A stretch of DNA of 64,000 bases from Antedon mediterranea. Lineage: Eukaryota > Animalia > Echinodermata. Shown here one piece after another: positions 8,812 to 63,010 of the stretch (position 1 is its first letter; each line of letters starts with the position of its first letter). The notes beneath the pieces were generated by a model. The model had not been told where the DNA came from. It made no database searches and was given only the letters and a program-made list of their open reading frames with translations. Made by a program: the position numbers and the translations under genes. Location of the stretch: assembly GCF_964355755.1 (NCBI RefSeq), contig NC_092677.1, positions 3,184,101 through 3,248,100 of the forward strand, written 5' to 3'.

Positions 8812-9423
8812 AAGTATGTAGTTATTGTATTTTCTATGCTAGGTCTCCAGTCGTATGAAACGCCACATGTGCAAAAATATTTATCTTTTTACTAATATAA
8901 TAAGTCACAACTCCGTTTGGAAACCCAGACTAGCAAAAACTTTACACGGCAAATGAAAATTCGAACGATTTTTTCGATTCAATATTTAGTGTCTCCAATT
9001 TTCCAATCTACTAATTATTAATCAAGTTACAACCCACCTAGGTACGTCAGAAGTAAGGATCCAAGCGATCGGAAACAAATCTAATTATTCAAATGCTATT
9101 ATTCATTCATGTAGCGTTGCTATTCAAAGCTCTATTAAAGGGACACGGACGCACTCGCGGTTTACTAGAGAGTGTCCCCATAATAATATGTATGTAGGCC
9201 CTACATATAATATTTTTCCCCTTAATATATCAAATAGGAGTTGGCCGAAGTGAAATATTGCCCGCTGCCTCGCTTGGTTTTCTAGCTAGGTCTCCTAAGT
9301 AGGGCCGGGGTGTCCAAAACTAAAATACAGGGATCGTCTTGTCTACATGTTTATGTAGTAAGTCTAATAAGTCGTTTCATATTTCTAATAAATTAAAATT
9401 ATGTATTTCATTACATATATTAG

Positions 9424-30700: not shown

Positions 30701-33700
30701 GCTAACTTTAATCTCTGACCTTTGACCTTATTAAGAATTTAACCTTCAAAATAGATTTGGTTTTTTCAAAACCATCAATAATATACTTGATTTCAGCGCC
30801 ATTGTAATATTTTTTAGTATTTATAAATTTCTTTATTTTTTTAATACACACATTAGAAGTTACTAAATCCTAATTACATACGGTCAGACTAACTGCCTAT
30901 GTATTATCTTAACCAACATAACTGGCGCCCATATAGTGCTACAGTAGGTCATTTTGTAAATGACGAGCCAATAAAATATTCAACTCTACATTGTGTTATG
31001 ATTCAAGGAAATAACTATGCAGCCTGATATTTAATTAAATCTCCCTAGGCTTAGCACCTGGGCCACTACTTAATTAGATTACACCCCATGATACATCGTC
31101 AAGTGTAGAGAAAAGTTAGGCCTAGCCAACATCAAGTGTAGAGAACAGTAGGCCTAGCCATCGTCAAGTGCAGAGAACAGTTAGGCCTAGCAAACATCAA
31201 GTGTAGAGAACAGTTAGGCCTAGCTATCGTCAAGTGCAGATAACAGTTAGGCCTAACCAACATTTTATTGTTTTAACATGTTCACAGTGCGGAATTTGAA
31301 CTTTTAACTTGACTGTACAAAGCAAACAGAAAAGAAAGGATACGTTCTGACTCGGCATGTTTGGTAAACAAATTCTCAACCTTTGAACTTAGTCCTTTTT
31401 CTAATTTATCTATTCTTGATTTTAAAGATTGATTAATGCTATTTGATAGTTGATTTCTGTTCATCTCCTTCCTCAGTTGACTCATCTCCTCTTGTTGTTT
31501 ATCTAATCTCTCTGTTATTTCTTTTAATCCATCTGTGATCTGAGGAAAAGAGATGTTTCCACTGTAAATACGGTGATGAAATAAAATCAAATTAACGCAA
31601 AATGTAAAAATCAACCAAAAACCTTGTAAAATATTATTGTATGTTTTCATTAATTTTTAAACAAAAGCCAAATTTTCTATAATAAAACTTTGCGGTTTTG
31701 AATGAATCAGATGCTGGAAAATATGATAGCTTCTGTGTTTAAGACTTTTGTTTACTTCCCGCAACTAAATAATCCTACAAGTTCATGTATATTGTAACTG
31801 AAAATGTTTGCAATTATGAAAAAATTGTATAAAAAAAATGAAAAGATATGAGAAAAAAAGTAACTCACGCTGCTTAGATCCACGATAGGATTGTCGAGCA
31901 CCTGTAGCGATCTTCTAACCAAAACTTTCGGGGAGGCATGCTTGCGCTTCTCTTTTTTAAGACGTCCTAATAAGGTCTGATCCTTACTTGATGACGATAC
32001 ATCAGCATCAGAACTGTACAAAAAGATATCTTAGTTTATTTCAATTTCAAATTTGTTCCTACTGCAGTCACTGCAATAAACAGTGTACACGATTACTCAA
32101 AAAAGTTTGCTAAATAATTGCATAAAAGGTAAAAGAATAAACAAAATAGTTACTGCAGTAAATTTAAAATGGCCCTAAACCATTGTATTAATAATTAATA
32201 TTACAAATAACAATTTATCATGGGTTGGCCAAAATAAAGCATTCAGTAATTTACAGCTATAATGAGCATTATAAACAAATTACTGAAATGAAAAAAAAAT
32301 AAAAAAATCTACACTATCAAAATTTATGTGACATAAAAATGTGATGTGCGCGATATATGAACATGATGATGTCATATCACTACCAAATTTGGGTATATTA
32401 CTACCATATATGGTTACATCACACTTGTTTTGTCAAAGTAGTTTGATAGTGTGGACAGAGCTTAAAGATTTAAAAAATAAGCTCATGGGCTTGTTACCTG
32501 GTTTCATTTCCCTCATGGTCATGCAAATGCATAGTGCTAGAGTCCTGTCCCTCGTCCATTGTTGATTCAAAATCGTCTTGCGGAAACTTATCTAAACTTT
32601 CAGATTTTCTAGCATAAAACAAATATAACACAAAAATGATGCATATTTTTCTGTAAGTTCTGTCTACACTATCAAACTTTATGTGACAACAAATGTGATG
32701 TGCCCATATATGGACATGGTGATGTCACATCACTACCAAATTTAAGCATATGACTACCATATTTGGGCACATCACACTTTTTTTTCAAACTAGTTTGATA
32801 ATGTAGACTGAGCTTTAATCATGATTAAATTCTGAGGTCAAATCATAAAAGGTAAAATAATTGGAAATCCCCATCTGGGTTGGGTTAAAGGTTTTTTTCG
32901 AAACAGTAGGATCAAAATTTCAGACCTTCATTCCAGAGTGTTTACTGTTTATATAAGTTCTGGGTTCAATCCTGATTGGGTTGGGGCTACAGTCAAATGT
33001 TTTTATCAAAATTAATTTATTTTCAACTGTAATTTTAGAGTATCTATACATTCCATGAGCTTACAACAACATGATTATGACCAGATTACAATACCACCAA
33101 GCACGCAAGTGAAAGCAACACATGCTCAGAATCGACGTCTTTTACTTACAATTCAACAGCTGGTTTCTCTTCAGCGTCTGGTACTTCCATCTTCTCCTCC
33201 TCGTGCTCCGCAAAATCAGCATTGTCACTTTCATCTTTCAACTGTCCATCTACAACTGGTGTTGTTTCATTGTTGATATCGACCTCCGACGCAATGTCCT
33301 GACCAAGTATCGTAGCCACTTCAGCACTTGAATCTGACAACCTCTTTTCAAGAAGTCTTGATTTACTTCCGACGCCCGATCTTGAGCTCACTGGTGTGCC
33401 ATCGTAGTCAACTGGTGATACAGGCAGTGGCAACGAAGATGGCGTCAACAGAGAATCAGATTCTGGTGTTGGTTGTAGAGACGAAGGAGTCATTGTATGC
33501 GAACTCTCCGGCGTCATGATTCTTGTTGTGTCGGAGGATGTTCTGGAGCTTAGAAGGTCATCGATGGAGCTGTTGATGGCGGTTACTTGTGTAAAACTAC
33601 TGGTGCTGGAGACACTATCACCAGTGGCAGAATGTCGAGCACCCTTCATAAAATCCTGTGGTGTCATTAAGACTGGTTGGCCACCAGAACGAGCAGACTC

Positions 33701-36700
33701 TGACGTAAAAGATGCCGTGGTAGAATTTGAAGGTGTCGCATGCTGATTGGCAGTTGATTCTTGTTCTCCTTGTGAGGTATCAGCATCAATTGACTGGTCT
33801 AAAAAGCTCATGTCAGACAAGCCATCATGTAGAGCTGTCAATGAAAAATGTAATCAATTTATTCAAACTTAAGGTACGTCCACACTGAGCCAGGATTTTC
33901 TTTCAATATATTTATTAGTAAATATGGTCAAATTAATACATTAATGTATAATAATACAGATGTAAATAAAATACATACAATATAGTCAATTAATGATAAA
34001 CAAAAGACCATAAATAGGGGATCAAGATTAGAAGTAAAAATACTTGTCTCATAATGACCCCAAATAAAAAAACAAACAAAAAGAAGCAACAACAAAAAAG
34101 AAAACAAACCAATATAAAATACTAAAAAACTAAAGATTGCGCAAATAATTATCAGTCATCTGACTGATACTTTGATAAACATTGCATTTTCATATTTCTT
34201 CTAAAAAGTTTAATTGATTTAACGTTAATATAGTGGCTGTATTTAGGTTATTCCATTGTGTGGGACCTGAAAAAGTAATGAAAAATTGGCTTTTCCTCAA
34301 TCTTACGAAAGGGACAAATAATAACAAATTATTGACATACTGAAACATAAACGAAGTAACTTGAATTGTGTGAAGGTCCTTAATTTTTACGATGTTTAAC
34401 TTCTTAAATAGAGGTTCAGAGGGCGTTCTAAATGGCGAAAAAGTTATTAAGCGAACGACACGTTTTTGTAATATAAGAATTTTGTGTAGATTTGAAGGGT
34501 AATCGGTTCGGTGCTAGAGAAAACTCTGGGCTATGTTACATTTTTTTTGGGCTCTGCAACATTAACACATTTCTTAAGCTCTGTCTACACTGTCAAACTT
34601 TATGTGACAAAAAATGTGATGTGCCCATATATGAACATGATGATGTCAAACCACTACCATATTTAAGCACATCACTACCATATTTGGGCACATCGCAGTT
34701 TTTTGTGTAACTAGTTTGATAGTGTAGACAGAGAATTAAAAAAAAAGAACTATACCAATTTTACATTTTTTCTTATTCGGGCACCAGACAAAAAATTCAT
34801 ACCTACGCCAATGAATATTTTAACCATTTTTTAATCATTAAAATTGAAAGTTGACAAACTCACCAGTATCATCTTGTGACAACGAGCTTATGGATTCACA
34901 GACTGATTGCTCTACTGACGATTGTGGTTGGAACCGAATTTGAAATTCTTGCAAAGATCTAAACAAAAATAAAATTCAATTAAATTTTAAGCACAATATT
35001 TTTCCAATAAGTATAATACTACACTTAGTACTACACATAAAAGTGTATTGGGTATCTGACATATTAATGGTTCAATAGACTATGCAAGGCTCAATAATAT
35101 CACACTCCTCTCCTCCCCTCCCCCTCCCCCAACTCTCATTTTCTTCAAATTGGCTCACAGACATGGATTATAATACAAGCATTCGTTTTAGTACAGGTCT
35201 GCTAAGGAAAACAAACCAGTAAAATTGATCATTGGTCGAATTAAATTCAGGCCAGTTAAAATTCCGGTCACTTGCTTGGTAGGTCTGCTAAAAATAATCT
35301 TAAGACCCCTGAATTTGTTGCGAAAAAATATTATAGAATTAAATTTAATGAATTACTTAGTGTGAACACAATACATCTTGACAACTGTACCAATCACGCT
35401 TTCCATCTCTCCTACAAAAAAAAAACCATAAATAAAAATTGTTTTTCATAATATTAATACGTATCGGGCTTCAAAACCACAGACCTTGGGTTCATGTCCT
35501 GTATGTTCATATCATCGTGAAGTAATTTCCAGATTGATCGTAATCAAAACGGTACTGGGTATGGTCTACTAGCGTTCCTGCTCCCAACAAGTACATCCAT
35601 TCATAGAAGCCTTAATGAAGTAAGCCTACCTGGTGGTGGCCATAGAACGGTCCCGAGTTAACGACTATACTTCGGCTTTAGTCGATAGAAGATTGAAAAA
35701 ATTGTTAGATGTTTGATTATGTGTAGATTTGTTCTTTTATTCAAATGATGTTCTGCATAAGGAAACGGAGATATGAGGTTTTGTTGTATTGGACTGGTGT
35801 ACAGTAGGTTTGTACCCTCCTATTAAGGGACACTTTTTTGGTCTCGAATGTGTCCCTTTAATAAAGGTTTTACTGTAATAATTGTGACACATTTTCCAAA
35901 AATAATATAAATTTTAATATTAAAAAAAAATTCTTTTTTTAATGTTTTCGTCAATTGTACTGTGATAGTGCATTTTAATGTTCTTTCCGATTTATTTATG
36001 ATTTGTAATTTTTATTGTGTGCATTGAGATTTAATAACGCAATACGCTTTATAAATCTCTATCTACAAACAAACTAGTGTGATGTGCCCAAATATGGTAG
36101 TGATAGGCGCAAATATGGTAGTGATATGACATCATCATGTCCATATATGGGCACATCACACTTATTTGTCACATAAAGTTTGATAGTGTAGACAGAGTTT
36201 TTAGAATGATAAACAATATACCTGATATATATGTTTCCTCATTGTTGTCATACTCAGCTGTGTGTTTGAGTTTCTTCTTACTGGCATCCACTACATAAAA
36301 ACTAAGCATAGGTTGAGTGAGTAGGAACTCTGACACAGAACTGATATGAGCCGTACCTTTCTCATCATTTTGGTGAACTTGCAGAATATACAATACCTAA
36401 TGAAAATATAGAAGATATGTTAATACCGTAGTTCCCCGGGTATAATCCCACTCCCCTTGCACGTGAAATTTGCCCGAATTTGGGAGGTGGGACTATACCC
36501 GGGGATTTCCCGCTGCAGGAACTGAAAATGACGATATTTCTTCTAGCTACGATTTAGGCTATCTAAAAGCTATATTCCAGTGTAGGCCTAGCAATCTAGG
36601 CCTAGGTGGCCTTACCTGTGCTATGCCTACCGTATAGATTTTCCCCGAGATTTCTACTTAAAAAATACCCTAAAATGTGATCTAGGCCTAGCTTCCTAAA

Positions 36701-39700: not shown

Positions 39701-42580
39701 CTGCAGTAGTATGATTTAATATTACAATGTTACTGCAGTAGTATGATATAATATCACAATGTTACTGCAGTAGTATGATTTAATATTACAATGTTACTGC
39801 AGTAGCATGATTTAATATTACAATGTTACTGCAGTAATATGATATAATATCACAAAGTTACTGCAGTAGTATGATTTAATATTACAACCTTGATGTTGTT
39901 TGGTACTTACAATGTTATCATGAGTAAGAGCCAGGATTCTACCGCCTTCATCTGTTGAAATCGTTGAGCCAGTTTCGCTTGGTGTATCTGGAATGCACGG
40001 GCACCAGACAACACGGTGGAAATCACTGCTAACGTTACTGCCGGCTTGCGTTATATTTACTTTAAGTTCATGCCTGGGATTTCAGTTAAGTTTATCATAG
40101 TAATCAATAATAAAACCGTAAACAATAAACAATTATTTATAATAATAGTATTATAAAATGTTTAGTTTTCATTTATTAGATTAATGTTAGACTGTTTTCG
40201 TTTAGCTTTTTGCTTATTTTCTTTCAATCCTCATTGAGATCCAGCCACTGATACCAACAGCATTGTCATTTTTTCAGTGCTAATTTTATTTGTAAATCTA
40301 TTGAGATCCAGCCACTGATACCAACAGCATTGTCATTTTTTCAGTGCTAATTTTATTTGTAAATCTATTGAGATCCAGCCACTGATACCCACAGCATTGT
40401 CATTTTTTCAGTGCTTATTTTATTTGTATCTCCATTGAGATCCAGCCACTGATACCCACAGCATTGTCATTTTATCAGTGCTTATTTTATTTGTATCTCC
40501 ATTGAGATCCAGTCACTGATATCCACAGCATTGTCATTTTTTCAGTGCTCAAAATATATAGACTAGAAATGATATCAAAGGATACTGTATCTTGTCATTG
40601 ACTTCCAGTAGCTCATACACAGTTACATTTCCCAACTTGTCAATACATGCTAATATGTTGGAGTTTGTGTGGGCAAATGCTAGGTCAGACACAACGTCAA
40701 CAAACCCTTTGATCAGAGAACGAGTTGATGTCTTGCGATTTAAAATGCGAACACCATAACCAGAGCTAACTGAAAAAGACAGGTAAAATATGTCATGATA
40801 TAATACATTCATACTGTTTGAACCATTACAGATTTTCTGGCTATGTTTTGAGACGTCCAAATATGGTAGTGATATGCTCAAATATGGTAGTGATATGACA
40901 TCATGATGTCCATATATGGGCACATCCCATTTTGTTGTCACATAAAGTTTGATAGTGTAGACGAGACTTTAAGCTCCGTCTACACTATCAAACTAGTTTG
41001 ACACAAAAAGTGTGATGTGACCATGGTAGTGATATGCTCAAATATGGTAGTGATATGCTCAAATATGGTAGTGATATGCTCAAATATGGTAGTGATATGA
41101 CATCATCATGTCCATATATGGGCACATCACATTTTTTTGGGTCACATTACAGTTCTACTTACTTTTGAGTACATAAGCAACATAATTACTACTGACTGCA
41201 ATGAGGTTTCCTATGTAATATTTGTGTTCCCAATCATAGTTCACTACCGGAGTTATTTTCACCTTTCACCAAAAAAATTACCAAATTACATGTTAAAATA
41301 ATACACTCAACTGGTGGCCAGCTCCTTATTTGTCACATTGTCATATTTATTATTAATTTCAAAATTATTATAACTAGTCAAAGAATAGACAGTACAGTAA
41401 TTACAAGATTTTGATTTGTGAAGTTAACTCATTGTGCACATGCTGGGAAGTTAGGAAGCGCTTCCTCACATCCCACCTTGACACAGCTTTGGTCGGTTGT
41501 CCGACATATTAATTGACCTGACCTTTTCAAGGTCATCGCAAATCAAAATGGACCCTCAAACACCAATCAAACCAAAACAATGTTTAATTTGTTATTAGTG
41601 ACATTATACTGTAAGCCAATTTCTGAGCCGTTTTAGCAAATTGTGTAATTCCAAGACGAATTGATAAGACTTGCCTTACTACTGCCTGGAGTGTTCACAT
41701 CAATAGACGAGCTGTCACTTGATACAATGTGAACCTCTCTGCCATACACTGGATATGAATCACTAGTGTCATCACCAGTTAAATGTCTACATAAACACAA
41801 ACAACAATTAAAACATTTATTTTGCCGCGCTTCAGCAATCGATTATTCCAAAGTTATTCCTAATATTTGATCTTTTTTGAGTTTTTACCATCTTTATATA
41901 TTGTTTTAGCATCAGGAAAAAGAATTTTACATCTGAATTTCCAAAAGTGACAATAAATATATATCTTGTATTTTTTAATGTCCTACAGTATATCAGGATT
42001 TAAAATTTTTTTTTCTTTTACAATTAAATGGATAGAATTATTCAGGGACCACCTTTATTAATGGGACACATTAACATGTTTTAACACTACAGTCAACCCC
42101 TATTGAGGGGACACTTTGGTTGGTCCCTAAGGTATCCCCTTAATAGGTGTTCTACTGTATCAAAGTGTAGGCTATTTACATTTCTTGTTTAGTCTTCATG
42201 AGCAGTGTAGCATCTAGGAGGGAAGCATCTCCTCTGCCGTTGGAAGCCTGCAAAATAAGATACAATTACATTATAACATACTGTACATATTTTGACAGTA
42301 CAACTCTTCATAAAATGTTTCTATCTTCTTTCAACTAAAAGCGTAGTTAGTCTTGTCTCAGGTCACATTCTATGGTCGCCGTACAGATAGGCTGCTACAT
42401 CAGTACTTCTATGAGTGACAAGAACGCTAGTTGGTCATACCGTTCTGTCAGTACCGTTTTGATTACCGTTTTGATTTTACAATCATTCGGAAAACAACCT
42501 CCCGACAGTGGACAATTAACTAACTTCCTGTCTATTTTAAGCTCATATATCTATCAGTTAAGTTTAATTTTACTTACCAT
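18757..42580 (-). CDS. EDC4: Enhancer of mRNA-decapping protein 4 (Ge-1/Hedls), ~1249 aa
   Basis: 23 coding exons with consistent phases: 42578-42580 (ATG), 42180-42247, 41675-41786, 41163-41262, 40586-40769, 39911-40073, 38943-39050, 38436-38629, 37570-37759, 36222-36396, 35357-35411, 34864-34958, 33150-33834, 32498-32608, 31869-32013, 31344-31539, 30576-30719, 30139-30254, 29605-29770, 24947-25133, 20935-21142, 20267-20430, 18757-18937 (3750 nt). WD40-region motifs VKITPVVNYDWEHKYYIGNLIAVS, LATASVDGSVKFWQIY, FWRFLIT and YCVHTKSLQ; a Ser-rich linker; C-terminal KENISKLVKS, LPAFERSCQ and EAFQTALSASDL. All match EDC4. Confidence 0.95.
21826..23407 (-). mobile_element. Non-autonomous Helentron/DINE-1-like (HINE) element in an EDC4 intron
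   Basis: On the minus strand the 5' end is TTTATTAGTTATCCGCACTTGGCGGATAACT (subTIR plus short partner IR), followed by a short TTCT run. The 3' end is subTIR GTGCGGATAACTAA, stem-loop AACTCGTCA-AAG-TGACGAGTT, then CTAGTTT. Confidence 0.75.
25288..25522. repeat. 15-bp minisatellite CCCAGG(G/C)TAGTTT(G/T)
   Basis: About 15 tandem copies abutting the 3' part of the LINE relic. Confidence 0.9.
25523..27950 (-). mobile_element. Decayed 5'-truncated L1/Tx1-clade LINE ORF2 (reverse transcriptase), frameshifted
   Basis: Fragmented ORFs carry DRGPGLWKLNS (post-endonuclease), LNKAPGTDGLTVGFY, NNWRPITLLNTDYKI, RGIRQSCPLSALLFILVAE, AQLADDT, SGLRLNKEKT and GGVKAPDF, interrupted by multiple stops and frameshifts. 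Confidence 0.9.
28372..28652 (-). mobile_element. SINE family 1 copy with an internal deletion
   Basis: Near-identical to 16761-17074 but lacks the segment between the two TGTACTA repeats. Confidence 0.85.
28783..28995. mobile_element. MITE family with ACTGCAGTTACTGCAGTA subterminal palindromes
   Basis: ACCACATCAAAATTCTACTGCAGTTACTGCAGTAA...GTTACTGCAGTAACTGCAGTAGAATATTTGACATGGT. Relatives at ~16620-16740, 20508-20710, 32060-32178, 39387-39580 and 60255-60715. Confidence 0.6.
29995..30089 (+). mobile_element. 3' end fragment of the same Helentron-like element
   Basis: CACGTGGCGTTTGCTCTGCGGATAACCTAACTCGTCCGTAGTGACGAGTTCAAATCTAGTT matches the reverse complement of 21826-21915. Confidence 0.7.
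30345..30556 (-). mobile_element. tRNA-derived SINE, family 2
   Basis: Minus strand TAGCTTGGTGGTTAACATG...GGTTCAATCC (A/B boxes); homologous to the plus-strand copy at ~51960-52175. Confidence 0.75.
30720..31343 (-). other. U12-type (minor) GT-AG intron in EDC4
   Basis: Donor GTATCCTTT; branch-like TTCTTAAT about 10 nt before the AG; no polypyrimidine tract. Confidence 0.8.
31094..31260. repeat. ~34-bp tandem repeat, ~5 copies
   Basis: CATC(G)TCAAGTGTAGAGAACAGTTAGGCCTAGC repeated. Confidence 0.85.
32655..32816. mobile_element. High-copy Harbinger-like MITE (representative copy)
   Basis: Family TIR AGCTCTGTCTACACTATCAAAC...GTTTGATAGTGTAGACAGAGCT with TAA/TTA flanks. Other full or partial copies at ~32308, 34576, 36057, 37200, 38760, 39230, 40860, 40971, 46728, 50886, 58704 and 60490. 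Confidence 0.8.
33900..34540 (-). mobile_element. 3' fragment of a CR1/L2-group LINE
   Basis: The minus strand reads RTPSEPLFKKLNIVKIKDLHTIQVTSFMFQY and VRLRKSQFFITFSGPTQWNNLN, followed by a T-rich 3' UTR. Confidence 0.7.
36424..37150. mobile_element. Non-autonomous Tc1/mariner (pogo/Tigger-like) DNA transposon
   Basis: TIRs TACCGTAGTTCCCCGGGTATAATCCCAC / GTGGGATTATACCCGAGGAACTACGGTA, TA target site, and repeated subterminal GGTGGGA(C/T)TATACCCG motifs. Confidence 0.8.
39570..39888. repeat. 32-bp minisatellite, ~10 copies
   Basis: Tandem GTTACTGCAGTAGTATGATTTAATATTACAAT. Confidence 0.92.
40074..40585 (-). other. U12-type (minor) GT-AG intron in EDC4
   Basis: Donor GTATCCTTT; branch site AACTTAAC about 11 nt upstream of the CAG acceptor. 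Confidence 0.85.
40232..40548. repeat. 67-bp tandem repeat, ~4.7 copies
   Basis: ATTGAGATCCAGCCACTGATACC... at 40233, 40300, 40367, 40434 and 40501. Confidence 0.92.
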
Positions 42581-44498: not shown

Positions 44499-47400
44499 AT
44501 GTCTGCAAAAGCTAAATTACCTCCAATTACAAGGTAAGCTGAGAAAAGAGTAGATTTTTCGGGGTGTAGGCTAGGGCCAGGCCCACCCATCCAGGCTGTC
44601 ACTGACACTGTCAGTGTATGTGGGGGAAGAGAGAGCTCAGAGGCTACCCGAGAGAGAGCCTGCTGAGGCTCCCCTCCTCAGTCTCAGAGTATCACACCAG
44701 TTTTGGCTGGTCCGCCCGGGGGAGAAGCATCTAACCCTGATTACACCACCCCACCAGATAGGATAGCCTTTTCTGTAGCTTCTTTGTTAATGCACCAGTA
44801 ATATAAGTGTTATGCGCGATTTGAACGATTTGCGCAATTTGAAATTGCGCAAAAAAAATCCTTGCGCAATTTGAATTGAAACATGTGTTTCAAATTGCGC
44901 AAGCAACGTATTAAATTGCGCAAGTAATCTGCAAATTGCGCAAGGTTTTTCGACAGATTGTGAAATCATGCACACCCATATTTTTATAGTAATTTCTAAG
45001 AATGATTCAAAATTAAAGATAAATATCGCATTTCCTTATTTTAGTAGTGCAAATATTGTTATAAGTTAGCATACCGTCGAAGAACCGACGAAGGAAAACG
45101 AAGCGGTGGTGTTCCACCAGGCGGGCGCGGCGCGGGCGGCCGGCTATACTACTCTAGCCTAGCTAGGGTCTGGACTACTGATACTGACTAGGTTACATGG
45201 CCTAGCTTAAACTAATATTAAAAACTTAAAAAGTGAGTATTAAACATTATCTTCATTGAAATGGTCTTATTTATATAATAAAATACTAAATTTTAAACTC
45301 CTCTGCCTAGGCCTAGCCTAGCCATGTATGGGAAAATTTACAGTTCGTTTTCAAATTGCGCAAAGGTGTCATATTGCGCAAGAACTATCTTGCGCAATTT
45401 ACAAATTGTGCAGCGCAATTTAAAATTGCGCAAAGATTTTCTTGCGCAATTTCAAATTGCGCAAGTTGATTGCGCAATTTGAAATTGCGCAAAAAAATCC
45501 TTGCGCAATTTAAAATTGCGCAAGAATTCTTTGCGCAATTTCAAATTGCGCAAGGATTTTTTTGCGCAATTTCAAATTGCGCAAATCGTTCAAATCGCGC
45601 ATAACATAAGCCTATTAGGGCCTACATTATAGAGCTAGAGAGGAGCCTATTACTAATACTATATTAGTATTAATTTAAATTTAAAAAAATTAACCTATAG
45701 GAGTAGGCCTAGTAGTAGCATTGCCATATTAATATTAATAATTTCTAGGCCCTATGTAGTGTTTTGTTCCGACACAGCCTGTGTGTGAACAATTTAATTT
45801 GCAATCGTAATGTCAGATGAGTGAATTAACAATGCCACGGTGATGCAGTATGAAAAATATAAGTTTTATAAATTAAATAATGATTTCATTTGTTTTGTTA
45901 CAATTCAGAAAAAGTCCATCACCAGGCCTAGGATACCCGATGAGTCAATCAGGACCGCATTATCAATTGACGTTAACTGGCGACTTAATGAAACATAACT
46001 TACCTGAACCAAACACGCTAAAGGTAACAACAAGAGGGTATATTTAACCATTAAATCCTTGTACAGTAGAACCAAGGGGACACCTTCATTCAGGACCCAT
46101 CAATGTGTCCCCCTAATAGAGGTGTCTTAAAGTAGTGATTCTACCATTAACAAGGCACATACAGAACTAACTTTAAATTCTTTTCACAGCCATATGTAGA
46201 CATAAAAGCTGGGAAGGTGGACACATGGCCAGCCCACGCCACTGCTCAAGCAACTACCGCGCTGACGTCGTACAACCAGAGGCAGCAGCACAACGTAGAT
46301 GGCGTTGATGACAACAGTCCACAACGATCTATCATTCCAAAGCCGAAGTTTTTAGACCAATTGGAATCATTTCTAAAAAAGGAACTAAGAAACCTAGACT
46401 GTTCTCAGTCTGGGCCTAGCGAGCTAAGGCTACAGGTATCATTTTAAACTTCCCCCTTTTATTGGAATACTAGTAGTCCTAACCTAGGACTATCACAGAC
46501 ATATGCAGTACATTATATTAATATTTCTTTAATTTTTTTAATTCCTAAAAAAATTTCTTTTAAATTAAACAGGCTTTCAGAGAAGTATTTGAATATTTAA
46601 TTCAAGATTTTAAAACGTATCGTCCACTTCTGTCGGCCATCAAGAATGAATATGAAATGATGTTATCGCATCAACGTCAGCAGATCCGTGAACTTCAACC
46701 TCTCAAGGTTTGTTTACCTCCATGTTTTAACCTCTGTCTACACTATCAAATTATGCCCAAATATGGTAGTGATGTGACATCATCATGTCCATATATGAGC
46801 ACATAATTTTTTGTCACATAAATTTGATAGTGTAGACAGAGCTTTCCAAAATTCAAATATTTTAAATATAAAACATTTGTTTCCTGTGACATTACTGTAT
46901 TTTTTGCATCATTTTAGTCGATGCTGGTAACAGTATCTGAACAGTGCGACCAGAAGGTGATGGCATTACGAGGAGAGGAACGACAAGAGATGACGGAACT
47001 GAAACAAGAGAATAAAAATTTACAAGAAACAATTACTATCATGAAACGGGACCATGTGGAGTTTGAAGAACAGATTAAAAAGGTGAGTGAGTCCCCTTGA
47101 GGGGTACAAAGTGTCTTCTTAATAGGGGTACAAAGTGTCTTCTTAATAGGGGTACAAAGTGTCTCCTTAATAGGGATACAAAGTGTCTCCTTAATAGGGG
47201 TACAAAGTGTCTCCTTAATAGGGGTACAAAGTGTCTTCTTAATAGGGGTACAAAGTGTCTTCTTAATAGGGGTACAAAGTGTCTCCTTAATAGGGGTACA
47301 AAGTGTCTTCTTAATAGGGGTACAAAGTGTCTTCTTAATAGGGGTACAAAGTGTCTTCTTAATAGGGGTACAAAGTGTCTTCTTAATAGGGGTACAAAGT

Positions 47401-50400
47401 GTCTCCTTAATAGGGATACAAAGTGTCTTCTTAATAGGGGTACAAAGTGTCTCCTTAATAGGGGTACAAAGTGTCTTCTTAATAGGGGTACAAAGTGTCT
47501 TCTTAATAGGGGTACAAAGTGTCTCCTTAATAGGGGTACAAAGTGTCTTCTTAATAGGGATACAAAGTGTCTCCTTAATAGGGATACAAAGAGTCTTCTT
47601 AATAGGGGTACAAAGTGTCTTCTTAATAGGGGTACAAAGTGTCTTCTTAATAGGGGTACAAAGTGTCTTCTTAATAGGGGTACAAAGTGTCTCCTTAATA
47701 GGGATACAAAGTGTCTTCTTAATAGGGGTACAAAGTGTCTCCTTAATAGGGATACAAAGTGTCTCCTTAATAGGGGTACAAAGTGTCTTCTTAATAGGGG
47801 TACAAAGTGTCTCCTTAATAGGGATACAAAGTGTCTTCTTAATAGGGGTACAAAGTGTCTCCTTAATAGGGGTACAAAGTGTCTTCTTAATAGGGGTACA
47901 AAGTGTCTCCTTAATAGGGATACAAAGTGTCTTCTTAATAGGGGTACAAAGTGTCTTCTTAATAGGGGTACAAAGTGTCTTCTTAATAGGGGTACAAAGT
48001 GTCTCCTTAATAGGGATACAAAGTGTCTCCTTAATAGGGATACAAAGTGTCTTCTTAATAGGGGTACAAAGTGTCTTCTCAATAGGGGTACAAAGTGTCT
48101 TCTTAATAGGGGTACAAAGTGTCTTCTCAATAGGGGTACAAAGTGTCTTCTCAATAGGGGTACAAAGTGTCTCCTTAATAGGGGTACAAAGTGTCTTCTT
48201 AATAGGAGTACAAAGTGTCTTCTTAATAGGGATACAAAGTGTCTTCTTAATAGGGGTACAAAGTGTCTTCTTAATAGAGGTACAAAGTGTCTTCTTAATA
48301 GGGGTACAAAGTGTCTCCTTAATAGGGGTACAAAGTGTCTTCTTAATAGGGGTACAAAGTGTCTCCTTAATAGGGGTACAAAGTGTCTCCTTAATAGGGG
48401 TACAAAGTGTCTCCTTAATAGGGGTACAAAGTGTCTCCTTAATAGGGGGACAAAGTGTCTCCTTAATAGGGGGACAAAGTGTCTTCTTAATATGGGTACA
48501 AAGTGTCTTCTTAATAGGGGTACAAAGTGTCTCCTTAATAGGGGTACAAAGTGTCTCCTTAATAGGGGTACAAAGTGTCTCCTTAATAGGGGTACAAAGT
48601 GTCTCCTTAATAGGGGTACAAAGTGTCGTCTTAATAGGGATACAAAGTGTCTTCTTAATAGGGGTACAAAGTGTCTCCTTAATAGGGGTACAAAGTGTCT
48701 CCTTAATAGGGGTACAAAGTGTCTCCTTAATAGGGGTACAAAGTGTCTCCTTAATAGGGGTACAAAGTGTCTTCTTAATAGGGGTACAAAGTGTCTTCTT
48801 AATAGGGATACAAAGTGTCTCCTTAATAGGGATACAAAGTGTCTTCTTAATAGGGGTACAAACTGTCTTCTTAATAGGGGTACAAAGTGTCTTCTTAATA
48901 GGGGTACAAAGTGTCTTCTTAATAGGGGTACAAAGTGTCTCCTTAATAGGGATACAAAGTGTCTTCTTAATAGGGGTACAAAGTGTCTTCTTAATAGGGG
49001 TACAAAGTGTCTTCTTAATAGGGGTACAAACTGTCTTCTTAATAGGGGTACAAAGTGTCTCCTTAATAGGGATACAAAGTGTCTCCTTAATAGGGATACA
49101 AAGTGTCTTCTTAATAGGGGTACAAACTGTCTTCTTAATAGGGGTACAAACTGTCTTCTTAATAGGGGTACAAACTGTCTTCTTAATAGGGGTACAAAGT
49201 GTCTTCTTAATAGGGGTACAAAGTGTCTTCTTAATAGGGATACAAAGTGTCTCCTTAATAGGGATACAAAGTGTCTTCTTAATAGGGGTACAAACTGTCT
49301 TCTTAATAGGGGTACAAAGTGTCTTCTTAATAGGGGTACAAAGTGTCTTCTTAATAGGGGTACAAAGTGTCTTCTTAATAGGGGTACAAAGTGTCTCCTT
49401 AATAGGGATACAAAGTGTCTTCTTAATAGGGGTACAAAGTGTCTTCTTAATAGGGGTACAAAGTGTCTTCTTAATAGGGATACAAAGTGTCTCCTTAATA
49501 GGGATACAAAGTGTCTCCTTAATAGGGGTACAAAGTGTCTCCTTAATAGGGGTACAAAGTGTCTCCTTAATAGGGGTACAAAGTGTCTCCTTAATAGGGG
49601 TACAAAGTGTCTTCTTAATAGGGGTCTTCTGAACTTTGCTTTATTTTTCACAGCTCCAAGATGAAGTTGCAGTTGAATATCAAAAATACAGAAATGAATG
49701 CGACGCCAGAAAACTTCTTGTGTCAGACATCAATGATCTGAAATATCAACAAGAGGACAACCAGAAGAACCAAGCCGGTATGCAAGAGGTGTCGGCAGAA
49801 TCCAAGGAAGACCCTATCAGACTTAAGATCGCTCTTAAGTAAGTGCTTTGACTAGATTTGTCAGTATTCCCATAGAGATAGTGTAGTACGGTATACATAG
49901 AGAACTATAGTATCTCAATGGTATTAATATCTCTATGGCATGGCATTGCATGCACAATGAATAGTGAAATTTTCCTAATCTACTCGGATTATTGTTTGTT
50001 TGTTTTATCTTTATACTGGGTGACCTCTTCAGTCAAAGACTGATCTCCCAGAGGGCCCAGTTGGTGATCAGTGGCTGTGATGTACTAATACACCGGGGTA
50101 ACCCCCTACTCGTCTCGAAAGATGTACTAGGTTCTTTAAAGTGCACACGAGCAAGTTGTGTACACTGGACCTACGGTTTATAGTCCTTATCCGAGAAGAC
50201 TCGTTCTACCACCAGAACCATGGAGTGAGTGAGCCTCGAACCCCTGCCGATGTTATGACTACGTGATTACGGTTCAACTGTCTTAACCGCTCGGCCACTC
50301 ACTCCTTTTTATTACAAAAACTGCACCAAACATACTAGAAGACTACAAGACACTGGTGCACACACACAAGACTAGATAAAAGAAACAAAAGATAACACAT

Positions 50401-54590: not shown

Positions 54591-55427
54591 GTGATGATGC
54601 CATTTCCAAATCATAAAAAGTGAAATAATATTTTATTTTTACTCAGGTTGGGAAAACAAATACATTTCTTGCTTGAATAAAAAGAATGTTCGGCTTCATT
54701 GAACCTTTCCTTGTTTATTGTAAATTGTGAAAGCGGGTTATAAAGCGTGTGGACGCAACTTGTCATCAAGAACCGTAATAAATTAGGCATGTTTGGTTTT
54801 ACCCTTTTGTTCTAATCCAACTACTTTAAGACAATATCAATCAATATTGATTGTCAATGTAGTTGGATATTTTAAACTTTTGAGTAAAAACGTTAAAAAT
54901 TGTATTTACAGTAGTATGAAGAAAATATTTTATGTTTTGTATAATAAAATACTTTATAATATTGTACAATTTTGACTTTTGACTGCCAATCAATACCATT
55001 ACAAGACAAAAACTAAATAAAAATTTCAACTTTTTCATTAAAACAACGACTACAGATACATAGTAGTAGTAAACAATAGAGTAATAAATTAATCTATTTA
55101 TAACTAATTAATAATAATATAAAGGTTTTACTATACATTCTAGTACACATATTTCAATTGGCAACAACGTGTTTGTCGATAATATTATTTGTTCAAAATG
55201 GAAGCAAATGCAGCAAATTTATTTTACAGCATATGGTATTGCATATGTATAATGTTACTGTAATTATCAACCATACAGCTTCCACAAAAAAGGGATGGGA
55301 AGGGGCTTCTGTATGGTACTTGATGTAAATATGAGCGTTCACTGGCTAAATTCAGGGGCCCCAGAACTTAAGGGCCCAGAGCATGCAATGCAACTAACTA
55401 CCCAATGTTGGAAGGCCACTCACTTAT

Positions 55428-56478
55428 GAGTGCTAAACCAGGGGCACCAGAGCATGAGCAGTCCAATGCAACTACCCAGCGTTTGAGGGCCCTTAGGAGT
55501 GCTAAACCAGGGGCACCAGAGCATGAGCAGTCCAATGCAACTACCCAGCGTTTGAGGGCCCTTAGGAGTGCTAAACCAGGGGCACCAGAGCATGAGCAGT
55601 CCAATGCAACTACCCAGCGTTTGAGGGCCCTTAGGAGTGCTAAACCAGGGGCACCAGAGCATGAGCAGTCCAATGCAACTACCCAGCGTTTGAGGGCCCT
55701 TAGGAGTGCTAAACCAGGGGCACCAGAGCATGAGCAGTCCAATGCAACTACCCAGAGTTTGAGGGCCCTTAGGAGTGCTAAACCAGGGGCACCAGAGCAT
55801 GAGCAGTCCAATGCAACTACCCAGCGTTTGAGGGCCCTTAGGAGTGCTAAACCAGGGGCACCAGAGCATGAGCAGTCCAATGCAACTACCCAGCGTTTGA
55901 GGGCCCTTAGGAGTGCTAAACCAGGGGCACCAGAGCATGAGCAGTCCAATGCAACTACCCAGCGTTTGAGGGCCCTTAGGAGTGCTAAACCAGGGGCACC
56001 AGAGCATGAGCAGTCCAATGCAACTACCCAGCGTTTGAGGGCCCTTAGGAGTGCTAAACCAGGGGCACCAGAGCATGAGCAGTCCAATGCAACTACCCAG
56101 CGTTTGAGGGCCCTTAGGAGTGCTAAACCAGGGGCACCAGAGCATGAGCAGTCCAATGCAACTACCCAGCGTTTGAGGGCCCTTAGGAGTGCTAAACCAG
56201 GGGCACCAGAGCATGAGCAGTCCAATGCAACTACCCAGCGTTTGAGGGCCCTTAGGAGTGCTAAACCAGGGGCACCAGAGCATGAGCAGTCCAATGCAAC
56301 TACCCAGCGTTTGAGGGCCCTTAGGAGTGCTAAACCAGGGGCACCAGAGCATGAGCAGTCCAATGCAACTACCCAGCGTTTGAGGGCCCTTAGGAGTGCT
56401 AAACCAGGGGCACCAGAGCATGAGCAGTCCAATGCAACTACCCAGCGTTTGAGGGCCCTTAGGAGTGCTAAACCAGGG
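55428..56478. repeat. 72-bp tandem repeat, ~14.5 nearly identical copies
   Basis: GAGTGCTAAACCAGGGGCACCAGAGCATGAGCAGTCCAATGCAACTACCCAGCGTTTGAGGGCCCTTAG... repeated; I saw only one variant position (~55756). Confidence 0.98.
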
Positions 56479-56803
56479 ACCTTTGCTCCCTGCATTATGC
56501 CACTGTAAATATGTAAATGACATCAAGAAGGCAGTTAATTGTATCGACAATGTACAAAACAGAGATAACGGCTGGTACTGTATTGATTCCTACACAGATA
56601 ATAAGCTAATAATGTGCAACCATGTGTGCTGAAGAATCATTGCCATTATAAACGTGAATAAAATGTTCATTGTTATTTTTTTTAAACACCCACCCAATAT
56701 ATTTATTTTCAAATTATAGAAAAAAAATCGCCTTATATAGATTGCTAGTCTGTTCACTGCTCACACTGCGATTCCTGGATCATAGCCGTGACAATATCCG
56801 ATT

Positions 56804-59800
56804 TTAAATATTTTGTTCTATTAATTTAAGTACGTCAAGGTATATAGAAGTTGTTTCCTCAGAGCCATTATGCTCAATTGCTTTTAGTTTATCAATATAG
56901 TCCTCACCTAACTCGTTTTGTACGGCACCCCTGACGATCACATCTAAATAATTTGGGTGCGGTGGACATAAAACTACCTCGTTGCTGATGACGTATGTGC
57001 GGCAAGTTAATGTTCCTTCTGTAGTGGATTCTGTGTTTACTTCAATTCCATGGTATCCTCCTTCTTGTCTAAAAAAAATAAAAATATATACCGACTATAA
57101 AGTCAACAATATATACAGGTTTAAACAATAAAAAATGAGAAAAACCAAGAGTGAAAAATAAAGCAAGACTGAATTTAAAAATGATGAAAAAATAAATAAT
57201 GAATAAAAAAATTGAAAGTGAAAAAAACAGCAACAGTGAAAAAAATTAAGACTGAAAAATAAAGCAAGAGTGAATAAATAAAGCAAGAGTGAATAAATAA
57301 AGCAAGAGTGAAATAAAAAGCAAGAGTGAAAAATAAAGCAAGAATGAAAAATAAAGCAAGAGTGAAAAATAAAGCAAGAGTGAAATATTAAGCAAGAGTG
57401 AAATATTAAGCAAGAGTGAAATATTAAGCAAGAGTGAAATATTAAGCAAGAGTGAAATAAAAAGCAAGAGTGAAATAAAAAGCAAAAGTGAATTAAATAG
57501 CAAGAGTGACAAACAATTCTTTTGCTTGATGTGTAGAAATCATATAGACTGCTAGGATTTATAATGTTTATTTAATATAAACAAATAATTTAATTACAGT
57601 ACACTGAAAAGACAACAATATAAAATGAAAATCATGAAAAGATCAATTATCATTTTAGCTCATCTAAAAATAAAAGCAAAATATTCAGTCATCTATCCTA
57701 TCATTTAAAAATTTTGTTTAGCAATATTGCTAATCAAACTGATTTTTAAGTCGAGAAACATAATTTTGTATTGTATTTTTTGCTACACAATTTTCAAAAT
57801 GTGTAGCAATAAGGTTGTTTTGTATAGCTTTTTGCTACGCTACACTGGCGAAAATGTTCCCTGCAGGCACACAGACAATCATGTTGACTAAAAGTTTTTT
57901 TCTGAATTTGAAGAACATGCCAAGAATTGGTAAATATATTCAAGTAGCGAGAGGAAAGCGACATCACAGAGCAATGACCACCACATCAAGTACTTCAATA
58001 CTTGGCACAAACCACAAAAACCATACAACAGACCACAATTCCATAGACCAACTTGCAGTACCTTTCATACAGCATTCGTTTCCACGCAAACTTTTACAAG
58101 ACTATACATTTGCGAGTCTTTTTCCTCGCTTCCTCCCAATCTTTTATCAACATCAACGTTTCCTGATACGCACGTACATTTCCTTGGTAACGGTTATGAT
58201 CGACTTCAGCGAGTGAGTCTAAATAATCTTGTGGCATGCCTTCGTTTCTAGCACCCATAAGAATAACGTCGACATACTGGGGGGAGGGTTTCATGGGAAT
58301 AAACCGCTCTATGTGATAGGTGTAGACCGGTAGGCCTTCGTCATGTGGGGTTATGGCAGTGGTTTCAAAACGTTGATATATGTGAAGATGTACTCCTAGT
58401 TGACTATTCATATAAGGAAATAATGAAATAATTTATTTTAATAAATTCAATTTATTTAAATTAAATTCAATTAATTTATTTTAATTAAATTCAAAGCCAT
58501 GTTGGTATTTCAGCTAGTCAATAAAAAGGTCATTAAAAAATTTATTTGATCTTCTTTCACATTCCGTACTGTTTTTATTTTATTTATATAAATATCTTTT
58601 GTACTTTTTTGATTGTGAGGGGAAAAAATAATAATAAAAAAAAACCGAATAAATGCTCAACATTATAAAAGATCAACAGGGAACAGAATATTAAGCTCTA
58701 GTAAAGGTCTATCTACACTATCAAGCTAGTTTGACAAAAAAATGTGATGTTCACAAATACGTTAGTGATATGCTTAAATATGGTGATGGTGATATGACAT
58801 CATCATGTCTATATATGGGCACATCACATGTTGTTGTCACATAAAGTTTGATGGTGTAGACAGAGCTTAATTGTCCTCCTACACTCTAAAGGTGGACTAT
58901 AGCTTTTCTTCTGCTCAGCCTCTAGTATAGGATATAAACGTCTGAGAGGAGCTTCAGACTATTTAATCGAACACCCTACAGTATTTTACTACTTTTTTTT
59001 TTGTCTTTTATGGGCTCGTCCACTTTTATTTCACTTTGCAGTACAAATTATTTCAATAATATACAAGTTCACTATAAGTATAATAAGTATAAACAGTATT
59101 TTACTACAGTAATCAAAATACTAATCTTACTGGTCTAGTGTTTTAAGGTGGCGTCTGCTAAGTTTCCAAACAACACCCCACACGTGATCACCGGGTGAAT
59201 ACTCTACACTCGCTACGCCACCTTTCCATACAGAACTTTTCCACGATTTTTGTTGACCAAAAACTAATTTATAATCCTAAAAAAACCAAATATTTATTAA
59301 TTTAGTTATGTTGGCTATCTATGATGATTAATATGAGAGTGCAATGACATTCAATAGAGTTTAAGGAGACAATTTTAGGTACTCTTTTCATAGAGGTGTC
59401 TCCTGATTAGAGGTTGGGCGTAGTGTTAAAACCCATAGTGTCCCTTTAACAGGGATGTCTCATAAACAGAAGTATCCCTTTAATATTGTGTCCTCTGAAT
59501 AGGCATGTCCCCTAAATAGGCGTGTCCCCATAATAGGTGCGTCCACTAAATAGAAGTATCCTTTTATTTTTTAATATGGTGTCCTCTGAATAGGCATGTC
59601 CCCTAAATAGAAGTATCCCTTTAATATGGTGTCCTCTGAATAGGTGTCCCATTAATAGGCGTGTCCCTAAATAGGCGTGTCCCTAAATAGGCGTGTCCCC
59701 TAAATAGAAGTATCCCCTTAATGTTGTATCCCCTGAATAGGTGTCCCATTAATATAGGCATGGCCCCTAAATAGGTGTGTCCCCTAAATAGAAGTATCCT

Positions 59801-61075
59801 TTTAATGTAGTGAACCTTGAATAGAGGTGTTCCATATGGAGGTATGTATAGACAAATACTGTAGGCCTACAATATTCTGTCCGTTCATTTGTGGGTGGGA
59901 AATGCAAATATTGTAAACATTCAAAAACTGATAAACAAAACAGTTTCACTGCAATTAGTAAGAATATAATCATTAAGAAGTATTCTTTAAATCAACTCAT
60001 AGGCAGAATATTCAATAAAACAATCAATTGTTTTGTCTAAAATAGCTTCAAATCAATACATGAACAATCAACTTGAGGTCAAACAGGCATTGAGTTCACT
60101 GATGAATATGAACGCCACAAATGAGACGTGTGAAGATGGTTATAATACTGAAATATTTCAGCTATTAAGTTTCAATAAAATATTCTTGTAAACAAATAGT
60201 TAAATGCTGTTGTTTCAAAATGGTTTGAATGTACTGTACATGCATTTTAAAAATAGTCTACTGCAGTTACTGCAGTAACTCTGCTGTTTTTTTAACCTTT
60301 TATTAAATTATTTGACAAGCTTTGTTTTTGTAATCATACACACTGTTGTTGTTTCAAAATGTTTGAATGTACCTGTATTTTTAAACATTATTCTACTGCA
60401 GTTACTGCAGTAACTACATTTTCTTTTTTATATTTTGTTTCTTTAAAATTTTATTCAATTATTTAAGTTTTTTTTATTCAATCATAAACACTGTCTACAC
60501 CATCAAACTTTGTGACAAAAATATGTGCCAATATATGGACATGATGATATATATATCATTACCATATTTGGGCATATCTCTACCATATTTGGGCACATCA
60601 ACATTTTTGTTAAACTATTTTGATAGTATAGACAGAGTTATACTGCCTTCATAAAATTCCAAATTGAAACCAAAACAACAAATCATATTTTCTGCAGTAA
60701 AAAATGTAGTTACTGTGCAGCTGAATTCAGTAAATTCTTACCCCTTCCCACCTGTAATTAAAGGTAAAATGGAGATAAATATTATTTAAAAATTTGGAAT
60801 GAAATTAAACATAATTCATAATGGAAAACAGGATAAAAGTTAATTACCTCTAGTTTTGCAATTGTCAGAAATGTGGCGGAAGGATTTTTGATGAGAAGTC
60901 GTTCTCTTAACAAATTGCTGCCATAACTGAAATACAAGAAGAAACCTCTACGCAAAGGTCGGAATTCCTCTTCATTAAATTGCCGCGATGATGACATTTC
61001 AGATGCTTCGTCACTTTCCGACGGTTTGAGCTCAAACACGGGGCCTTCCGCTACCTCATTCGCATTTGTCGCCAT
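56804..61075 (-). CDS. GGCT: Gamma-glutamylcyclotransferase, isoform using distal last exon 3b (catalytic QEG retained)
   Basis: Exons 60848-61075 (FLYFSYGSNLLRERLLIKNPSA), 59131-59276 (WKGGVASVEYSPGDHVWGVVWKL...LD) and 56804-57068 (QQEGGY...TCRTY...PPHPNYLDVIVRGA...LKAIEHN). Intron positions and motifs match GGCT. Probable 5' UTR exon donor at 61657. Confidence 0.88.
57253..57509. repeat. ~19-bp A-rich tandem repeat AAGCAAGAGTGAAATATT
   Basis: About 13 tandem copies. Confidence 0.9.
58094..58403 (-). CDS. GGCT: Alternative proximal last exon 3a of GGCT (Glu-to-Leu at the catalytic position, C-terminal CaaX)
   Basis: AG acceptor at 58404-58405 in phase 2, matching exon 2. Open frame HQLGVHLHIY...KPSPQYVDVILMGARNEGMP...YQGNV...ARKKTRKCIVL-stop. 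AATAAA downstream at 57567-57572 (-). Confidence 0.8.
59390..59835. repeat. Degenerate GTGTCCCCTAAATAG tandem array (MITE-derived)
   Basis: Repeated ~18-20-bp GTGTCCCC/TAATAG units. Confidence 0.75.
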
Positions 61076-63010
61076 ACTACCAAAACAAACAATTTTCAAA
61101 ATATGATTATCAATAAATTATATAACCCCAAAATGAAAAACAAATTATAGTAACTTTAAAAGAAAAATATTTGGCCTATTATTATTTATTCTCTAGTGTT
61201 TTAAAAAGATAATTTTTTTTTCTATTTGGTTTTCAAATTTTTTAATATTAATTATTTCAAATAATTTTAGAAAATTGATCTTATTAAGTTCTTAAATTGA
61301 ATTCCTAAAATAGTTCTCCAGGAATACTATCCATAAATGTCCTGGATTTATATTTAAATTAATATTATCAGTTATAATTTGTAATATTTAATATATTAAG
61401 CATTTACGAATATGTAGGCCACTAGGTACAGGTCAGAGTAAACATGTGTTGTGGTGGGCTTCAGTAGGCCTAGTAGAGTAGTCACCCGCTGGATTAGCAA
61501 AAACATTATGCGCCGGGAGGGCTTACCCTGCCTGGCCAGTCAAAGCACTACATATAGGGTGGGTATTATTTTATACTGTTACTTCTTGTTGTTTTGAATT
61601 AATATTCTTTAATACATTTAATATAACAGCTAAACTACTTTAGTAACTAAAACTTACCTGTACAGTTTTACGTGACCACCACCAGCGCAGGTCTTGTCTG
61701 CTCACATACGCTCCTCCTCCTACCGCCTGTCGAATGTAACTTTTTATCGCAGGGGAAAGTACCGTTCTTTGAATATGCAGAGCGCCACCAACAATCTTAA
61801 AAAGGAAATTCCCCTATGACGACATGACAATGTTGGAGAAAGACTAATATAACGCCCGTACTCTTAACCAATCAATGACGGTTACATTTTTTATAAACCT
61901 CGTTTAAATACCATTTAGTCGGCGATTTAGCCTTCCCCCTCGAGGACTAAAAAATTGATCAAAATCCGTCTCGATTTAGTCGAGGTTGGCCTGATTTAGT
62001 CGCCGATTTTTAGTTGAAGTTCGGTTTATGAATTAAAATGTCATATTTAAAGTTTTAGCTCGAACTACGACTATAGTAGGCTACATAGATTTTTTTCTAA
62101 AAATTGCCAAAATTTCCAATTTTTAAAAACAAATATGTAAGCGATAATATTGCCATTTCCCGGTGCCATTTATGCACACAATATTGTGTTAACGTCATAT
62201 TATAGAGCCATAGTAACTAGTTAAGTCAAAAAATAAAAGGGTCAAAATTTGGCCATTTTTCTAAAATTTTCCTGTACTATAGGCATGACCAGACAGAATA
62301 CTCTGGGACAGTTGCCTACACTTGAATCGACCCGGAGAGGGGGTGAGGGTTGTCGGATATTAATTTCGTAAGATAAAATATTACTGCCATTAATGTTGCT
62401 CTAAAAAAAGTACACTAACATAAATGTGACGTCAATATAGGACTTTATTTACGAATTAATACAGTTTTTGAACAAGTAAAATTACATTAAGAAAATGATT
62501 ATAATTTGAAATGACGTAGGTGGTTAACGAATTGCCAATAAATGTAATGGATGTAGCCCATGGGCCTAATTATATTTTAAAATATATTATGACGTCATCA
62601 TCATAACAAAAACGCTGAGTCGCTCCAACAACGTTAGAGAATGGAAGAACGATATGCAAGGCATTACAAAACAGTTACAAATTGCTTCCCTTTAAAAAAA
62701 ATCAATTTTTAACTATCGAAAATCATGTTGCCCAATTTAAGGTTTTGAATAGTGAACATGGTATTGTTAATGTTAGGTATAACTCTCGATATATGATCGA
62801 GACGTGACCAATCTGTCCAGTACGCAGCTTGAATATTCTTACGCGTAACACTACTTTCTCTCCAAATACGCATAACTGTCGCTGTGGTAACTGGTTACTC
62901 AGACAACAAAATGCGCAGAAATGTAACAAGTAAAAGTTTTAGTTTTCTATATTATGGTGTCGAGTCGGCAGGCGGAGCGTGGCCGAAGAAAATAAAATAA
63001 CAATTTTAAA

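Follow-up and report, generated by a model that had tools for sequence, protein, structure and literature searches.

Human GGCT (C7orf24) provides the reference for the gene described here, through PDB entries 2PN7 and 2I5T, the structures of the E98A and E98Q variants (2RBH and 3CRY) and the Pfam families PF13772 and PF06094. Its Glu98, given in the original prediction as the catalytic acid/base, is named as such in PMC7022552, and E98A is called catalytically dead in PMC11821397 and was likewise used as a dead mutant in PMC13039682. We analysed a 64,000-nucleotide stretch of the crinoid Antedon mediterranea (contig NC_092677.1, positions 3,184,101 to 3,248,100, hereafter the window), which holds a GGCT gene with a single exon 1, a single exon 2 and two homologous last exons, 3a and 3b, both in frame. 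Our results support the unannotated exon 3a as a selected coding exon at an ancestral intron position, and a somewhat better than even case can be made that it serves as a minor alternative last exon giving a 227-residue, catalytically dead and geranylgeranylated isoform.

All GGCT exons of the window lie on the minus strand (Table 1). Six-frame searches of the 64 kb with profiles and tblastn returned exon 1 once, exon 2 once and exon 3 twice, in agreement with the original prediction, which saw no second copy of exons 1 and 2 between the two last exons. Two same-phase homologous terminal exons thus stand behind one upstream exon set, the arrangement of duplicated alternative last exons. The acceptors named for 3a and 3b are the first AG of the right phase in each stop-free stretch, and both conceptual splices from exon 2 are open, giving a 227-residue isoform A through 3a (LDHQLG, ending ARKKTRKCIVL) and a 212-residue isoform B through 3b (LDQQEG), so that the coordinates, frames and motifs first proposed all hold. 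The two exon-3 products share 29 of 104 aligned residues and both exceed the PF13772 cut-off of 27 bits (41.8 bits for 3a and 44.8 for 3b), as expected of the intact but diverged C-terminal GGCT halves that had been described. The interval initially delimited (56804-59276) encloses exons 2, 3a and 3b; it leaves out exon 1 as well as an upstream exon that is probably non-coding. The latter is a candidate chosen by sequence after a contig of the sequencing run X1 (record 8) was seen to carry 101 extra letters 5' of 61078, and its in-frame stops, including an ATG-TGA start-stop, make 61075 the likely start codon. The downstream AATAAA signals reported for each last exon are present, 522 nt past the 3a stop and 97 nt past the 3b stop, but the hexamer occurs once per ~417 nt per strand in the window, which places them at chance level, and we rejected them as evidence.

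Exon 3b encodes the ordinary annotated enzyme, as had been proposed. Isoform B is letter for letter RefSeq XP_071959657.1 of Antedon mediterranea, aligns with human GGCT over residues 45-195 (E 4.5e-42), the two sharing YGSN and the catalytic Glu, and thereby carries the YGS(N/L) motif and catalytic Glu named as GGCT-fold features in PMC7022552; its exon 1 product is 100% identical to residues 1-76 of the collected protein P0001. Searching by the conserved part of exon 1 retained 3 proteins among 13 candidates, with XP_071959657.1 as the best and, as second match, the 212-residue, 3b-like orthologue of Anneissia japonica, which belongs to a different comatulid family from Antedon mediterranea. 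Searches with 3a matched none of 19 candidates among longer proteins, yielded zero candidates among proteins of near length, gave 81 matches among 50% representatives with none above 55% identity, and returned from the ESM Atlas only sub-0.9 matches to short unnamed clusters. Exact look-ups with 3a gave no match, a 105-residue form starting at an intronic ATG lying outside these look-ups. A metagenome locus (L001; 66% GC, 26 residues) was dropped; no full GGCT query matched it.

Polymorphism, conservation, the age of the split between 3a and 3b (treated with the trees below) and the intron position uphold the earlier description of 3a as intact and coding despite its divergence. Six of its eight listed variant sites are synonymous, where 21-28% would be expected (P 0.0017-0.0078; pN/pS ~0.1), the corresponding counts being 5/8 in 3b and 4/4 in exon 2. 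The variant list is incomplete, with six table rows missing and two of nine X1-contig differences unlisted, and the worst case for 3a, in which both unlisted differences are non-synonymous, gives 6/10 (P 0.016). This excess of synonymous polymorphism argues for present-day selection. Among alignment columns conserved at 90% or more, 3a and 3b each keep 11 of 14, and at 70% or more 3a keeps 19 and 3b 17 of 25. Of 2000 runs of a neutral simulation limited to substitutions, 132 remained free of stops down to 55% identity. The 3a acceptor resembles used acceptors, with 15 pyrimidines in 21 positions and, over the 37 upstream nt that were inspected, not one further AG. Moreover, Arg or Ser precedes QE in 16 of 18 fragments with non-homologous upstream sequence vs 29 of 60 intact homologues (Fisher p 0.002), which we read as translation through an unspliced AG, so that a phase-2 intron at the very position of the 3a acceptor appears common across homologues. 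With its fold under purifying selection despite the loss of the catalytic residue, predicted isoform A would have the character of a pseudoenzyme.

In a 30-row tree, its rows chosen from a 72-row set, 3b paired with its Anneissia orthologue at 100/99. A clade of 3a and 3b excluding the Anneissia exon was rejected (approximately unbiased (AU) test, p 0.0145), hence the split between 3a and 3b is older than that between Antedon and Anneissia; a single clade of 3a with the crinoid 3b exons, examined as a crinoid-specific split, gave an AU p of 0.18. The 72-row mixture-model tree leaves exon 3a unplaced. We also considered a bacterial origin, since 3a joined P0032, read as bacterial-like, at 96/89 in the 30-row tree; as the 72-row tree did not repeat this grouping, we did not retain the idea.

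At the catalytic site, 3a aligns gap-free to human GGCT residues 98-177 (PDB search, E 1.6e-7) and the Leu of HQLG falls on residue 98 of both 2RBH and 3CRY, so that the predicted absence of the catalytic Glu stands. The same column holds Glu in 76 of the 78 database domains past a coverage filter, with one Asp and one Met; the filter had removed fragments short of the motif and seven sea-urchin LYPTLY domains. The GGCT homologue P0029 has Met at this position. Human Tyr105, Tyr125 and Tyr139, which presumably have an active-site role in GGCT, all have Tyr counterparts in 3a, and isoform A retains PSPQY together with the shared YGSN loop. Conserved Tyr residues are listed in ChaC2 numbering in PMC7022552. 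With Leu in place of the Glu of active GGCT, isoform A very probably lacks canonical activity. Modelled alone by AlphaFold (38-row alignment), 3a reached a predicted local distance difference test (pLDDT) of 92, and the six best PDB matches of this model in Foldseek were all human GGCT; profile and fold match thus both identify the exon as a GGCT C-terminal half. A single-sequence model of isoform B failed, with a pLDDT of 33.

The C-terminus of 3a is 12 residues longer than that of 3b and ends in CIVL-stop, the Cys-aliphatic-aliphatic-Leu form of a geranylgeranyltransferase I (GGTase-I) substrate. Of all 3344 stop-ended segments in the window, only that of 3a has a strict C[VIL][VIL]L end, and 14 fit a broad CaaX pattern. 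Human GGTase-I fully geranylgeranylates CIIL, CTIL, CVIL and CVLL in a yeast reporter (PMC11152559), motifs close to CIVL, and the plant enzyme accepts only Leu-ended motifs (PMC3017772). The incomplete list mentioned above has no variant in the codons of CIVL. From this motif, prenylation of isoform A on Cys224 is, in our judgement, highly probable.

Transcript evidence comes from X1, one of five runs covering the stretch, whose contigs stop at splice sites, as fits RNA. One contig stops precisely on the donor of exon 1 (60848), another (record 3) begins exactly at the 3b acceptor (57068), and record 7 lies on exon 2 (59131-59275) and extends by ~30 letters at either end. Where exon 1 ends and 3b starts, the residual depth fits that of the exon-2 contig (48.4) plus a second contig of 16.3-16.6, in three separate bins, while an exon-2 contig ending on 3a would give a bin of 15.3 where the bin reads 5.83. 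We infer from these depths, rather than from junction letters, that exon 2 joins 3b; the RefSeq identity of isoform B and the X1 contig ends and depths together indicate that the exon 2-3b junction is transcribed. Of the two junctions put forward for checking, 59131->57068 accordingly fits the contigs, whereas no piece with 59131->58403 occurs among those of X1, a single contig-only run; since contigs drop rare variants, the missing piece is no evidence of absence. A contig does cover 57864-58360, most of 3a, and two contigs account in full for the 3a depth bins (residuals -0.5 and 0). The depths themselves (8.8 over 3a, 3.6 immediately ahead of it, 48-58 over exons 1, 2 and 3b, and ~0 at 57069-57215 and 57524-57677) were left unused, as depth in contigs is no basis for ranking exons and a lack of coverage proves nothing.

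The same bookkeeping implies a second path from exon 1 to 3b avoiding exon 2, at 60848-60877 and 57039-57068 (depth ~16 vs 48), by direct skipping, with a frame shift and a stop after 8 codons, or through a putative cassette exon. A very high-copy short element has two inverted copies (79% alike) at 58700-58870 and 60470-60645, one in each intron beside exon 2, and their pairing could favour exon 2 skipping.

In the explanation that we favour, the exon 2 donor would, in some tissue or stage, join the proximal acceptor at 58403 and the transcript would be cleaved before 3b, yielding an isoform A that is minor or confined to certain stages; that it is made by this splice we consider probable. 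It would fold as a full GGCT domain with its pocket kept, bind gamma-glutamyl substrates without turnover and, through a prenylated Cys224, be held at membranes. The overall estimate given at the outset is a joint one, over the production of isoform A, its lack of canonical activity and its prenylation. What such a protein might do is conjecture. GGCT is a dimer, and the likeliest role for isoform A, which we advance only tentatively, would be that of a non-catalytic partner tethered to membranes, which binds substrate and, paired with isoform B, localises or damps it. The sensor or recruiter role is doubtful, as is the more general idea that one splicing choice, by removing the Glu and adding an anchor, would turn a dead subunit into a membrane regulator that binds gamma-glutamyl peptides or captures active subunits.

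Several observations weigh against this explanation. None of the five runs is recorded as RNA and the nature of X1 is a guess; its exon-2 contig is accounted for by the join to 3b, and another contig (58362-58541) crosses the 3a acceptor unspliced. The exon 1 search found only a 212-residue form for Antedon and for Anneissia, neither labelled as an isoform. On human GGCT the 3a model superposes poorly (template modelling score ~0.48, root-mean-square deviation ~7 A), as is expected of half a fold and offers no proof of a complete one, and the dimeric state of GGCT enters as background. As for the tail, CIVL itself appears in neither PMC11152559 nor PMC3017772, CaaL motifs are farnesylated too (PMC11152559), and none of the 97 collected homologues has a canonical CaaX end, which leaves the motif without comparative support. 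The K-Ras/Rac-type polybasic stretch of the original prediction is weaker than stated: RKKTRK does stand beside CIVL, but of the ten residues that precede the Cys 5 are basic and 2 acidic, and the X1 allele K220E falls within the basic stretch.

Two other explanations turn on how 3a is transcribed. Exon 3a could be an old duplication remnant that is no longer spliced, its X1 coverage being pre-mRNA or DNA, as the unspliced contig over its acceptor and the sole 212-residue form in the protein collection would suggest; we hold this to be unlikely, because the excess of synonymous polymorphism argues for present-day selection, the frame and acceptor are intact though the split predates two comatulid families, and family-level conservation of 3a equals that of 3b. 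The unspliced contig, which starts at 58541 and enters 3a, would also suit expression of 3a alone from a start in intron 2, giving a 105-residue prenylated half-domain from an ATG at 58411 that is in frame, lies 8 nt short of the acceptor and is preceded by a TATAAA at 58588. Yet either strand has a TATAAA every ~930 nt, position -3 of the ATG is a T, and the half would have only part of the barrel while keeping positions conserved for the full fold, whose structural role there is established; such a product seems very improbable.

The remaining two explanations accept that isoform A is made and differ from ours on its chemistry or its anchor. It might be a membrane-anchored enzyme of changed chemistry or substrate, with another residue (e.g. 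a nearby His) or another reaction replacing Glu98. The retained Tyr105/125/139 equivalents, PSPQY and YGSN loop would allow this, as would the His at 125, 130 and 132 of isoform A and the alternative Glu usable by ChaC2 (PMC7022552). However, isoform A has zero acidic residues between D124 and E138, Glu is near-invariant in the filtered domains, and E98A is described as dead, which makes retained catalysis improbable. Alternatively, isoform A could be non-catalytic and cytosolic with an incidental CIVL, given the lack of canonical CaaX ends among homologues, the tolerated K220E and a tail that the model places on a long helix, which stops just two residues short of the C-terminus. We regard this as quite unlikely: the strict CaaL end is rare by chance, its codons are without a listed variant in the incomplete list, and the basic stretch lies on the extension that 3b lacks. 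A prenylated, catalytically dead isoform A thus remains our preferred reading, and we consider 3a well supported as a selected hidden exon and unproven as an isoform.

Table 1. Features of the window, in window positions
Feature	Positions	Strand	Details
Probable non-coding upstream exon	61658..61760, 5' limit approximate	-	ends CAG/GTAAGT; in-frame stops, including the ATG-TGA in the frame of the main open reading frame
Exon 1, shared	60848..61076	-	ATG at 61075; coding 61075-60848 = 228 nt; phase 0 donor; YFSYGSNL loop
Exon 2, shared	59131..59276	-	146 nt; ends ...LD-CA, phase 2; donor GTAAGA
Intronic ATG	58409..58411	-	in the frame of exon 3a; potential start of a 105-aa half protein
Exon 3a, unannotated alternative last exon	58094..58403	-	310 nt; C-terminal half of GGCT fold; Leu at Glu98 position; ends RKKTRK-CIVL
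CTA codon (Leu127 of isoform A)	58397..58399	-	at the position of human catalytic Glu98
Tail of 3a	58097..58126	-	RKKTRK 58126-58109; CaaX box CIVL 58108-58097; run X1 has the K220E allele (58120)
Candidate poly(A) signal for 3a transcripts	57567..57572	-	AATAAA; chance-level alone; T-rich tandem repeat 57513-57142 behind
Exon 3b, annotated last exon	56804..57068	-	265 nt; C-terminal half; catalytic Glu codon 57064-57062; orthologous exon in Anneissia
AATAAA past 3b	56702..56707	-	X1 contig runs on beyond 56600
EDC4/Ge-1-like gene exon	40552-40968	-	PF16529, E 1e-14; downstream of GGCT, same strand
Broken retrotransposon without long terminal repeats (non-LTR)	25246-27462	-	reverse transcriptase piece PF00078 at 26308-26904

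Elsewhere in the window, open reading frames at 33149-33853 and 31285-31656 may belong to the EDC4/Ge-1-like gene. Tandem arrays lie at 55423-56478 (69 nt), 47100-49625 (24), 7812-8813 (40), 1-5588 (89/285) and 57142-57513 (18), and the long stop-free frames given by several of them are repeat artefacts.

Compared with human GGCT, the crinoid gene differs by its second last exon, by Leu for Glu98 and by a C-terminal CaaX box that the human structures lack. The nearest parallel to the loss of the Glu comes from other echinoderms, where a tandem GGCT cluster of sea urchins (Strongylocentrotus purpuratus LOC577509; Lytechinus XP_041454586.1 and XP_063971293.1) includes a duplicate with Leu at the Glu98 position. 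The seven LYPTLY domains of Strongylocentrotus and Lytechinus all align Leu at this position and group with other urchin domains. They correspond to P0085, P0086, P0088, P0089, P0091, P0094 and domain 4 of P0087, with YASN replacing YGSN. Unlike 3a, these paralogues are whole-domain duplicates with their own N-terminal halves and without CaaX, and they sit on a separate branch, so that the Glu was likely lost independently and the urchin paralogue is likely an independent GGCT pseudoenzyme. A change from Glu to Leu needs two base changes, and its repetition seems unlikely to be trivial; on the doubtful reading of isoform A as a membrane regulator, its presence in both crinoids and sea urchins would be the sign of a non-catalytic GGCT function under selection. 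Ptychodera, Branchiostoma, Cichlidogyrus and sea urchin also have GGCT predictions with two to four domains (P0004, P0005, P0006, P0087, P0093 and P0095), which suggests that GGCT is often duplicated in tandem; some of these may be fused gene models.

Outside this family, the gene layout has a counterpart in GSTD1, with shared 5' exons and homologous alternative 3' exons, although the GSTD1 variants are all enzymes and are not known to carry a lipid anchor. K-Ras4A and 4B also use alternative 3' exons, both forms being prenylated, and UGT1A_i2 proteins are inactive regulators whose last exon is not known to be a homologous duplicate. OAS1 p46 and p42 share their catalytic domain and differ in the tail alone, whereas in the GGCT gene half the fold and the catalytic residue are swapped. 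OAS1 nonetheless offers an isoform-specific anchor, p46 with its CaaX box lying at endomembranes and p42 being without it (PMC9041830). In the same way, ZAP-L of ZAP (PARP13) gains an inactive enzyme domain and a CaaX box by alternative processing and moves to membranes (PMC10747524); ZAP-S, by contrast, is simply without the domain, with no active counterpart from a duplicated exon. Splicing relocates a metabolic enzyme to membranes in Arabidopsis G6PD5 (PMC9478949), and splice variants of Anopheles gambiae GSTD1 are on record (PMC1761136).

As the original prediction had supposed, our literature search, with most subscription journals outside its scope, found no report of such a last-exon arrangement for GGCT. 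The reach of the finding is limited to one invertebrate lineage, with every ingredient precedented in other families and the key junction unseen. If isoform A is made, a selected coding exon is absent from the protein collections searched, and the gene provides a natural matched pair with the same N-terminal half and C-terminal halves with and without the catalytic Glu and lipid anchor, by which a non-catalytic role of the GGCT fold becomes directly testable, and the sea-urchin paralogue, in which Leu likewise replaces Glu, offers an independent comparison. The arrangement appears new for GGCT and is built from known ingredients, namely duplicated last exons and the isoform-specific CaaX box of OAS1 and ZAP.

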